This document shows, in pieces, positions 50,076 through 51,863 of a stretch of 64,000 bases of DNA. Where the stretch lies: assembly GCF_001677475.2 (NCBI RefSeq), contig NZ_CP015229.1; one strand, written 5' to 3'. Numbering within the stretch: position 1 is the first letter of the stretch; the number at the start of each line of letters is the position of its first letter. The notes below the pieces were generated by a model. It ran no database searches. It was not told the DNA's origin and was given only the letters and a program-made list of their open reading frames with translations. Position numbers and translations under genes: made by a program. The DNA comes from Escherichia coli. GTDB lineage: Bacteria > Pseudomonadota > Gammaproteobacteria > Enterobacterales > Enterobacteriaceae.

Positions 50076-51863
50076 TTATGCAAAATCCTCAAGGTGACGA
50101 CTGATACTGTTTTCACGGTAACAGGTCACCAGTAATTCACGGGTTGCCCGGGTGAACGCCACATAAAGCACCGGGATTACTTCAGACTCATCCGCTACAC
50201 CAGAGTGAACGAAAGACGCATTGATAACTGCCACATACGGGAACTCCAGCCCCTTACTGCTCTGGTACGTCAGTAAATGCACCACATCCTTGCGTCGCGA
50301 GTATGTCTTCTTGCCTTCCTTGTCAAAGCAGGTGGCAAAAGGTATCCCACGCTGTGTCATAACCTCTGTCAGTTGTTTCACTGAAAACTCTGCCGGACAC
50401 AGCACAGCCATATCACTCCAGTGACCGCACAGGGCATGGCGCTTCTCCAGCCAGTCTGCGACCTGTCTGGCTTCATCACGCTCAGAAGTACAACGCAGGA
50501 TTTCCGGCTCTGTGCCTTCTTCACCGCCTGCCTGTGGCTGAACGAGCGGTATTTCACGGTTCTGATGTTTTTCAAAATACTCGCGGGAGAATGCATAAGC
50601 AAAGTGCAGAATGCGTTTCGGATTACGATAATTGACCGGCAGGACAGAAGTGCGTCCCTGTGCCTGAATCCCCACACTGGCCAGAGAAAAGTTCAGGGCC
50701 CGCTCCCGCCGGTAAATGGACTGGGCATCATCGTACATCAGGAGCAGTGAACGGGATGCGTTATCAAACAGACGGGCAATCAGTGCCAGCCAGCGACTGT
50801 CAAAATCATGCCCCTCATCCACCAGTACAGCATCATATCCGGTTTGGGTGATTTTTCCGCTGTTCACGGCCTCTTCCAGTGCACTGAAGCATTTCTCAGG
50901 ATATTCTTTTCTGTCGGCCGTCACCTTAATACCGTGGCGTTTTACCATTGAGGCACACCAGCTGTGAAAATGAGATACCGTAACCCGTGACCTCAGCCCT
51001 CTGGCCTCAATGCATTCCCGCAGATAGCTGGCCAGGGTAATGTTGTAGCACAACACCAGAATCTTTCCGGACGTGGTTTCTGCCAGGTAAAGGCAACGGA
51101 ACAAAAGAATCATGGTTTTTCCGGAACCGGCCACACCATGAATGACACGATGCCCGTCACCAATATTTCTGGCCAGAATCTCCTGCTGGATATCCATGAT
51201 TTTGATTTGTGAGTTCTGTTTCACGGTCACTTCAGGAAACAGATGGGCGCGCAGAATATCTCTCATCCGGGGTGTCACCCGGGTTCTGAATCCCGTGGTA
51301 AACATCCCGGCAATTTTTTGCCGGAACACTTCCGGTAGCACAGACGCAGTCATTTCATCCTGGCAGATTGTCTGTGCTGAAGGAAAAATCTTTTCCACCG
51401 CATTCTCATCATTCCCTGCCAGTGTCTTCAGTTGCTGACGGGTAATGCGGGTAAACACCACACCATACGCCCAGGCCAGGTTCAGCCGTCCCTTATACTG
51501 ACCGTCATTCTGCCGTAAGCACGGGTCTGCAGGTAAGGCATTAACCGTATCACAGGCATAACGACGAACCTGTACCAGCGGATTGATTTCTGATTTCAGA
51601 AGACCGTCGGTTTCCAGCGTGACCTGCTCCTGATTTACCTGGCGCAGCGTGGAAACCGTCCAGTCCTTGACCTCCAGAAATACCAGTCCGTTCTCCGGGT
51701 CAATAATGACAAAATCCGGATGCCGGTTTTTCCGTCCCACCGGAATATCGTACCAGACAAGGCAGTCATCATTCAGAAAGCTCTCCAGTCGTGAAGCCAC
51801 CCTCCTCTCCCCGGACGTCATTCTCTCCTCAGTGGACGCCGATACATTTATCAGTTTCGCCAT
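50076..51863 (-). CDS. NERD-domain / SF1 (UvrD-like) helicase fusion protein
   Basis: 595 aa; N-terminal NERD-like region (…HPDFVIIDPENGLVFLEVKDW…), Walker A GVAGSGKT, Walker B VLVDEGHDF, C-terminal YQSSKGLEFPYVAVI. Confidence 0.7.
   Translation of the reverse strand: MAKLINVSASTEERMTSGERRVASRLESFLNDDCLVWYDIPVGRKNRHPDFVIIDPENGLVFLEVKDWTVSTLRQVNQEQVTLETDGLLKSEINPLVQVRRYACDTVNALPADPCLRQNDGQYKGRLNLAWAYGVVFTRITRQQLKTLAGNDENAVEKIFPSAQTICQDEMTASVLPEVFRQKIAGMFTTGFRTRVTPRMRDILRAHLFPEVTVKQNSQIKIMDIQQEILARNIGDGHRVIHGVAGSGKTMILLFRCLYLAETTSGKILVLCYNITLASYLRECIEARGLRSRVTVSHFHSWCASMVKRHGIKVTADRKEYPEKCFSALEEAVNSGKITQTGYDAVLVDEGHDFDSRWLALIARLFDNASRSLLLMYDDAQSIYRRERALNFSLASVGIQAQGRTSVLPVNYRNPKRILHFAYAFSREYFEKHQNREIPLVQPQAGGEEGTEPEILRCTSERDEARQVADWLEKRHALCGHWSDMAVLCPAEFSVKQLTEVMTQRGIPFATCFDKEGKKTYSRRKDVVHLLTYQSSKGLEFPYVAVINASFVHSGVADESEVIPVLYVAFTRATRELLVTCYRENSISRHLEDFA

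Follow-up and report, generated by a model that had tools for sequence, protein, structure and literature searches.

A window of 64,000 nucleotides (nt) from the Escherichia coli contig NZ_CP015229.1, the window being the whole stretch of DNA that was analysed, carries at 50076-51863 on the minus strand a gene whose product joins a nuclease-related (NERD) region at the N-terminus to a UvrD-like superfamily 1 (SF1) helicase, and this raises the question of what such a fusion does. An initial annotation of the locus had described a stand-alone gene in an island and had placed it among anti-phage effectors of Nhi-like architecture; the analysis reported here bore out the two-domain architecture, the gene's stand-alone status and its location in an island, whereas 'Nhi-like' did not hold as a statement of family membership. 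We propose, with a probability of roughly 0.55, that the product is a self-sufficient, ATP-dependent nuclease-helicase of the NERD+UvrD family whose role is most likely to be protection from invading DNA, of phages and possibly of plasmids. This proposal builds on the observed domains, the conservation of catalytic residues, the lack of a partner gene, purifying selection and frequent adjacency to defence genes, and this circumstantial support makes a defence function plausible.

The gene is an open reading frame (ORF) of 595 codons without interruption, and Pfam profiles assign its product a NERD domain (PF08378) at amino acids (aa) 17-108 (E 6.2e-10), AAA_19/UvrD-helicase at aa 226-385 and UvrD_C/UvrD_C_2 at aa 407-583, so that both the nuclease-related N-terminus and the helicase core first read from the sequence were recovered by profile search; failure to find a NERD domain in this way, which the initial annotation had named as a ground for refutation, did not occur. 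The NERD profile also matched all 27 of 27 N-terminal segments of diverse homologues when each was searched singly (best E 3.5e-15), and the profile match together with an intact D...(D/E)xK motif places the domain in the NERD nuclease class. Between nuclease and motor, a Pfam search of aa 109-215 gave no match. The three helicase motifs quoted in the initial annotation, GVAGSGKT, VLVDEGHDF and YQSSKGLEFPYVAVI, were all located (Table 1), and the complete series of motifs I-VI of a UvrD/Rep-type SF1A helicase was found (GVAGSGKT, DEGHD, DDAQSIY, NYRN, SKGLEF and FTRA).

Conservation was read from an alignment of 60 diverse homologues of 27-59% identity. Within the nuclease, D50 never varies, and conservation reaches at least 90% at E19, E64 and K66; within the helicase, the positions that are invariant or at least 90% conserved are G243-T250, D349/E350, Q381, R413, G538 and T571/R572, the last pair, in motif VI, being invariant. 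This conservation of catalytic residues in both domains indicates that both predicted enzymatic activities are under selection. The same alignment bears on the start codon: M1-A2 are at least 90% conserved, distant N-termini read MA..IP, and the ATG at 51863 is preceded, at a distance of 5 nt, by a Shine-Dalgarno sequence, AAGGTG. Therefore, the 595-aa reading from M1 is a better start than M15, which RefSeq uses for E. coli homologues (581 aa); the stretch concerned is 51821-51863 of the minus strand. RefSeq names these homologues either '3'-5' exonuclease' or 'NERD domain-containing protein', and the former name is without backing in the domain content.

An AlphaFold2 model built on a homologue alignment (predicted local distance difference test (pLDDT) 91.4, predicted template modelling score 0.88) was compared by Foldseek with the PDB, where UvrD, PcrA and Rep came out on top (E ~1e-17), followed by SLFN11/14 and Upf1-type helicases; a sequence search of solved structures found nothing close, with PcrA, UvrD and Rep weakly matched. 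The N-terminal domain matched the PD-(D/E)xK nucleases Can2, Card1, McrC, Shedu and Upx, and also restriction enzymes, and as modelled it has a restriction-endonuclease fold, many relatives of which are defence nucleases. In the ranges aligned by phmmer, the slot of subdomain 1B holds ~34 aa (312-346) and that of subdomain 2B ~5 aa (509-514), against ~120 aa and ~160 aa, respectively, in PcrA/UvrD. The accessory 1B and 2B subdomains were thus not recovered in a helicase core of just 380 aa, and since the aligned ranges leave few residues for 1B and hardly any for 2B, the motor is a stripped 1A/2A core in which 1B is reduced and 2B is absent.

The best match of any library was the PADLOC model PDLC01087, 'C3a187' (NERD+UvrD; E 1.1e-142, 474.8 bits), which aligned aa 1-594 with positions 1-556 of its 559 and to which each third of the protein matched separately. 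Other PADLOC matches were far weaker and partial (GajB, ~4e-21; reverse transcriptase (RT)-associated helicases, 1e-18 and 2e-15; AbiO, 2e-6), and the NERD region alone matched only C3a187, RTasNERD-Hel (5e-5) and PDC-S18 (0.025). The name C3a187 was given to one of many clusters found near type III CRISPR cassettes, with three occurrences and Dole_0738 as representative (Shah et al., 2018; PMC6546367). It denotes a bioinformatic candidate and no validated system, so membership names the family and gives no function; the gene is a new member, from E. coli and relatives, of a catalogued, uncharacterised candidate family.

That family is large. When 1.84 billion representatives were searched exhaustively with phmmer, 564 clusters (50% identity) came up at E<=1e-30, most of them ~600 aa long and aligned end to end, from Proteobacteria, Cyanobacteria and Myxococcota. 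A full-length copy is present in 614 of 5426 complete E. coli genomes (~11%), and the E. coli alleles, whose protein sequences diverge by as much as 10%, evolve under purifying selection, the ratio of nonsynonymous to synonymous substitution rates (dN/dS) being 0.14-0.19. The 614 carriers, the dN/dS values and the 564 clusters together argue for a real gene and no chance ORF. Plasmids carry the gene in Escherichia, Vibrio, Ralstonia, Pantoea and cyanobacteria; a full-length homologue was not found among 50,697 phage records, and a phage origin was rejected on this ground.

Gene neighbourhoods were surveyed at 80 loci of 37-65% identity, on one-genome-per-species contigs from Gamma- and Betaproteobacteria, cyanobacteria and Pyxidicoccus, with all-versus-all clustering of the ORFs within ±6 kb. 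No neighbour family occurred at more than 9 of these 80 loci: the most frequent (9 loci) was a GGDEF protein of variable position and strand, and the families seen at 7 loci reflected lineage synteny or Fic. Within E. coli, even the upstream neighbour differs, being PD-Lambda-1 in the window and in strain SFE8, an insertion sequence (IS) fragment in Ec-050 and Ail/Lom in 2017.17.03CC, and a copy on an IncF plasmid has in common with the window just 51874-49989, which covers the gene with very little flanking sequence. Because no neighbour recurs at more than 9 of such diverse loci and the plasmid copy comes alone, the gene works as a self-contained unit, as its earlier description as stand-alone had implied.

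Support for a defence role comes from a scan of 30 immediate neighbours at 15 diverse loci with PADLOC profiles, in which strong matches directly adjoined the gene at 6 loci. In the window, too, a defence gene, PD-Lambda-1, is next to it. The adjacent matches were to IetS (3e-38), SIR2+HerA (~1e-160, in two genera), a type IV restriction enzyme (9e-24) and NsnB (1e-67), and the sixth locus had a PD-T4-6-like kinase (3e-34) together with a LeoBC/ThsA-like protein. The two SIR2+HerA pairs both lie directly downstream of the NERD-helicase gene in Comamonadaceae, in Polaromonas (locus L022, 11946-15012) and in Xylophilus (locus L046, 11932-14921); this adjacency may represent one shared island or a recurrent pairing.

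Several observations weigh against a defence role. At the other 9 of the 15 loci no recognisable defence neighbour was seen, in a sample that is small and comes without a formal background comparison, and the setting that is conserved among Enterobacterales is that of a type VI secretion cluster, not of a classical defence island. About 430 further E. coli genomes, including O157:H7 and the enteropathogenic O127:H6 strain E2348/69, retain nothing of the gene beyond its first 797 nt, cut by an IS66-family insertion, which indicates that the gene is dispensable. In addition, dN/dS among E. coli alleles gave no sign of gene-wide diversifying selection or of an arms race. The literature searches found no paper that reports anti-phage activity of the family, whose only defence listing is the 2018 candidate entry, and the 'NERD' system DS-26 of DefensePredictor offers no prior validation, as it is WP_054626965.1, a 532-aa Upx-like protein. 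Two other reports were also set aside as prior validation: HEC-02 of Payne et al. consists of an ABC ATPase and a separate NERD protein, and ZwsA, a NERD RNA endonuclease described in a recent preprint, differs in architecture from the present protein. A paper on metagenomic selection makes no mention of the family.

If the gene does act in defence, its 2B-less SF1A motor would load on single-stranded DNA (ssDNA) or on DNA ends that arise in phage replication or DNA entry, and would translocate 3'->5' on ssDNA in an ATP-driven manner, a polarity suggested by analogy with UvrD, PcrA and Rep. The motor would then feed or position the substrate for the N-terminal NERD PD-(D/E)xK nuclease, which would degrade it. 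Such a mechanism would resemble those of the single proteins Nhi and Hna and of the AddA/RecB motors. Along with the defence role itself, we infer a DNA rather than an RNA substrate, the polarity, the trigger and the discrimination of self from non-self. Were restriction of phages or plasmids to prove true, a common system (~11% of complete E. coli genomes, hundreds of clusters) would join the defence catalogue as a compact one-gene system of 1.8 kb, and would provide a minimal model of a 2B-less UvrD-type motor coupled to a PD-(D/E)xK nuclease. The fixed slot of the gene in a type VI secretion cluster would carry 'guilt-by-embedding' past defence systems. None of these results would surprise the specialist, as island-borne fusions of nuclease and helicase form a class already recognised and the family is listed as a candidate.

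This slot has the gene order tssM–tssA–tssF–tssG–tssJ–tssE–(x)–NERD-helicase–vasL in type VI secretion clusters of Enterobacterales, and is found in Cedecea neteri (65% identity), Pantoea vagans pVag1 (61%), another assembly (60%) and E. coli genomes that encode the protein of enteroaggregative E. coli (EAEC) 042, in which the cluster is Sci-1-like (loci L002, L086, L087 and L088-L091). The gene overlaps the start of vasL by 4 nt in Cedecea and by 23 nt in Pantoea. Where the E. coli cargo block is intact, it reads tssE – YdcA-like – PD-Lambda-1 – NERD-helicase – 101 aa – vasL – two ORFs – IbrA – IbrB – PerC … tssB/C, whereas the window retains the cargo block alone (48882-53911) and the rest of its type VI cluster is decayed and rearranged. 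A YdcA-like ORF of 133 aa (53456-53857, minus strand) follows PD-Lambda-1 in the window as it does in intact clusters. At 55006-64000, an F4 (K88)-like fae fimbrial operon replaces the type VI genes, as annotated in matching E. coli records.

In the window, vasL is split into two distant parts because ~29 kb between two inverted, identical copies of an IS66-family element was inverted. The inverted segment holds pheV, yqgA, speC, nupG, mltC, mutY, trmB, ansB, yggM and half of the island. The dctM gene of a tripartite ATP-independent periplasmic (TRAP) transporter is likewise split, between 13921-14511 and 45325-45951. When the inversion is undone, the gene lies in an island anchored at pheV that extends from the tRNA-Phe and integrase genes past Shango and IbrAB, Shango being ~10 kb away; the Shango system is complete (22756-28580, minus strand), and IbrA/IbrB (19452-21307) and PerC follow it. 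The island named in the initial annotation can thus be described as a pheV-anchored region that contains Shango, PD-Lambda-1, the IS66 copies and type VI remnants. The coordinates of these features are collected in Table 1.

Table 1. Features of the NERD-helicase gene and of its surroundings in the window (positions are those of the 64,000-nt window).
Feature	Position	Strand	Basis or remark
NERD–UvrD-like helicase fusion gene, complete, TAA stop included	50076..51863	-	ORF list; full-length PADLOC C3a187 match
NERD (PD-(D/E)xK) nuclease domain, aa 17-108	51540..51815	-	Pfam
E19 codon, upstream of predicted catalytic core	51807-51809	-	
Predicted catalytic core D50 ... E64-V-K66 (PDF ... EVK)	51666..51716	-	Conservation, 60 homologues
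Middle alpha/beta region, aa 109-215, connecting nuclease and motor	51219..51539	-	pLDDT ~90; conserved L110, L116, R205
Minimal UvrD-like SF1A helicase core, aa 216-595 (RecA-like 1A + 2A)	50079..51218	-	Pfam, Foldseek
Walker A / motif I, GVAGSGKT, aa 243-250	51114..51137	-	G243, G246, G248, K249 invariant
Motif II, VLVDEGHDF, aa 346-354	50802..50828	-	D349, E350 invariant
Motif V, YQSSKGLEFPYVAVI, aa 533-547	50223..50267	-	G538 invariant; K537, L539 at least 90% conserved
12-bp G+C-rich perfect hairpin in the 192-nt gap between PD-Lambda-1 and helicase	51903..51933	.	Terminator-like scan and sequence
PD-Lambda-1 gene	52056-53300	-	PADLOC 3.8e-88; coiled-coil N-terminus and GIY-YIG-like T5orf172/MUG113 C-terminus
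Small ORF 65 nt downstream of helicase, 53-aa remnant	49737-50010	-	29-bp deletion relative to 101-aa form
vasL part, aa 1-266	49682→48881	-	
vasL part, aa 265-449	17999-18547	+	
IS66-family element, 2505 nt, two 100%-identical inverted copies	14508-17012 and 46047-48551		
tRNA-Phe (pheV)	33391-33466		
Integrase	31928-33193		
SngA (Shango)	26271-28580	-	PADLOC E 2.5e-99
SngB (Shango)	24951-26267	-	PADLOC E 8.7e-187
SngC (Shango)	22756-24954	-	PADLOC E 4.6e-278

A functional tie to type VI secretion, either as an accessory or regulator expressed jointly with vasL or as a secreted nuclease effector for which the 101-aa ORF would be the immunity gene, seems improbable. The order tssE–(x)–NERD-helicase–vasL is kept across genera at 60-65% identity between them and the gene overlaps the start of vasL, yet this synteny could be mere inheritance of the whole locus: the survey found no type VI secretion link outside Enterobacterales, leaving 78 of the 80 loci without one, and the secretion genes of the window and of many E. 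coli genomes have been lost or broken while the helicase is intact and under purifying selection. The 101-aa ORF, intact in SFE8 and 042-type strains and without a family match, is frameshifted in the window and an annotated frameshifted pseudogene in loci L082 and L083 beside helicases that are intact, a state irreconcilable with that of an essential immunity gene, and it is absent in Pantoea, in Cedecea and next to the plasmid copy, which has the gene alone; a partner or immunity role of this ORF was ruled out on account of its frameshifted or pseudogene state in several genomes. A literature search linking the NERD domain with type VI secretion found no paper. Since the link is missing elsewhere and the gene outlives the secretion genes in E. 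coli, we read the slot, as far as gene order can suggest, as the mark of a long-term passenger without functional dependence on secretion. A helicase-nuclease for DNA repair, recombination or replication restart, serving the host or the island with no role in immunity, is unlikely as well, although it would fit the purifying selection, the nearest structures and NCBIfam matches (PcrA, UvrD, Rep, HelD and AddA) and the RecX, UmuDC and Y-family polymerase genes found near the gene on two plasmids. All 22 NCBIfam matches fall far below the curated cut-offs (10-20 times; the best, PcrA, has 63.6 versus 911 bits), which rules out identity with the housekeeping proteins UvrD, PcrA, Rep, HelD, AddA or RecB, and the spread is patchy (intact in 11% of E. 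coli genomes, with many truncated copies), the location is an accessory region beside defence systems, and the 80 loci show no conserved repair partner.

Defence could also take a different form from the DNA degradation that we favour. The ZwsA report and the fold-level Schlafen matches leave some room for an RNA-targeting abortive variant, a Schlafen- or ZwsA-like effector in which the helicase would sense ssDNA or replication intermediates and the NERD domain would cut tRNA or phage RNA, and we hold this to be quite unlikely. A broader conjecture, that the family is the bacterial counterpart of group III Schlafens, with an SF1 sensor of ssDNA or stalled replication and a nuclease that cuts RNA (tRNA) or DNA to abort infection, captured in Enterobacterales as a fixed, co-expressed type VI passenger, is more speculative still. 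That the gene forms a two-gene system with the adjacent PD-Lambda-1 (GIY-YIG/T5orf172) is very unlikely. The two genes lie on the same strand 192 nt apart, the PD-Lambda-1 copy in the window is intact, and the two occur together in SFE8 and in genomes with the EAEC 042 protein as well; however, PD-Lambda-1 is a known anti-phage system with a single-gene entry in PADLOC, it is gone from the position next to the helicase in other E. coli genomes that retain the helicase, a T5orf172 neighbour is not recurrent over the 80 loci, and a strong hairpin stands between the genes. This hairpin has a canonical T-tail on the plus strand, and on the minus strand a T-run begins 9 nt past the stem; it likely separates the two transcription units as a terminator, and it may stop transcription in both directions or form a structured 5' leader on the helicase mRNA. 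Similarity to E. coli loci that lack PD-Lambda-1 begins downstream of the hairpin, at 51865-51953. PD-Lambda-1 was ruled out as a partner on the hairpin, the helicase-only genomes and the plasmid copy. The remaining candidate, an accessory of type III CRISPR-Cas, is the source of the name C3a187, the PADLOC model deriving from three occurrences beside type III cassettes, and one weak CARF-like neighbour was seen in locus L013. The family is far more widespread than three cases, though, and neither the 20 window ORFs scanned with PADLOC nor the neighbours tested at other loci yielded a cas gene, so this extremely improbable reading is already effectively refuted at the window locus.

Several known systems share parts of the design of this protein. 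The SF1A motor with motifs I-VI is common to AddA/RecB and to UvrD/PcrA/Rep, which provide the best structural matches, and AddA/RecB also couple it to a PD-(D/E)xK nuclease. Their nuclease is C-terminal, whereas the present one is N-terminal and of the NERD type, and compared with all of these helicases the present protein is without 2B, has a minimal 1B and has no partner subunit. The group III Schlafens (human SLFN11/13/14) also combine an N-terminal nuclease with a C-terminal SF1 helicase, in an antiviral or replication-stress role, and match both halves at the level of the fold, with scores no better than those of generic PD-(D/E)xK nucleases and UvrD. Homology by sequence was ruled out, as a profile of the Schlafen/AlbA_2 nuclease core does not recognise the protein.

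Among prokaryotic defence systems, Gabija has a UvrD-like SF1A core in GajB, the next-best PADLOC match (E ~4e-21 to 1e-14, partial), but its nuclease is GajA, a separate OLD-family ATPase-TOPRIM protein, while the nuclease here is fused, of the PD-(D/E)xK type and joined to a motor without 2B. Gabija was ruled out, the GajB matches being partial and GajA not being found among the neighbours. The RT-associated NERD-helicase, known as cluster 485 beside UG34 reverse transcriptases (Mestre et al., 2022; PMC9226505), has the same order of an N-terminal NERD domain and a C-terminal helicase. However, the RTasNERD-Hel match (2.1e-15) covers aa 210-425 only and is ~125 orders of magnitude weaker than that of C3a187, and no reverse transcriptase was found among the ORFs that flank the window gene. 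With C3a187 itself, the match is full-length and extends to the two-domain architecture and the size, although the position beside type III CRISPR-cas by which it was originally defined is not shared.

Nhi (nuclease-helicase immunity) of Staphylococcus epidermidis has a motor of the Dna2/Upf1-like SF1B type, whereas the present motor is a UvrD-like SF1A one. What the two have in common is a design and not a family, namely one polypeptide chain that begins with a nuclease and ends in an SF1 helicase. The PADLOC model of Nhi (PDLC02372) matched in the Walker A region only (24.3 bits, E 2.7e-6), with no match for aa 1-215 at E<=1 or for aa 401-595, and this restriction ruled out membership; 'Nhi-like' therefore stands as an analogy of architecture and falls as an assignment, the NERD region being unmatched. 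A review lists NERD as the nuclease domain of Nhi-like proteins (PMC10952713), and an 'Nhi-like' set was described by Millman et al. (2022). Nhi and Hna are single proteins reported to be triggered by phage single-stranded DNA-binding protein (SSB) and replication complexes (PMC10732053), and by analogy such a trigger would be a plausible model for the present protein.

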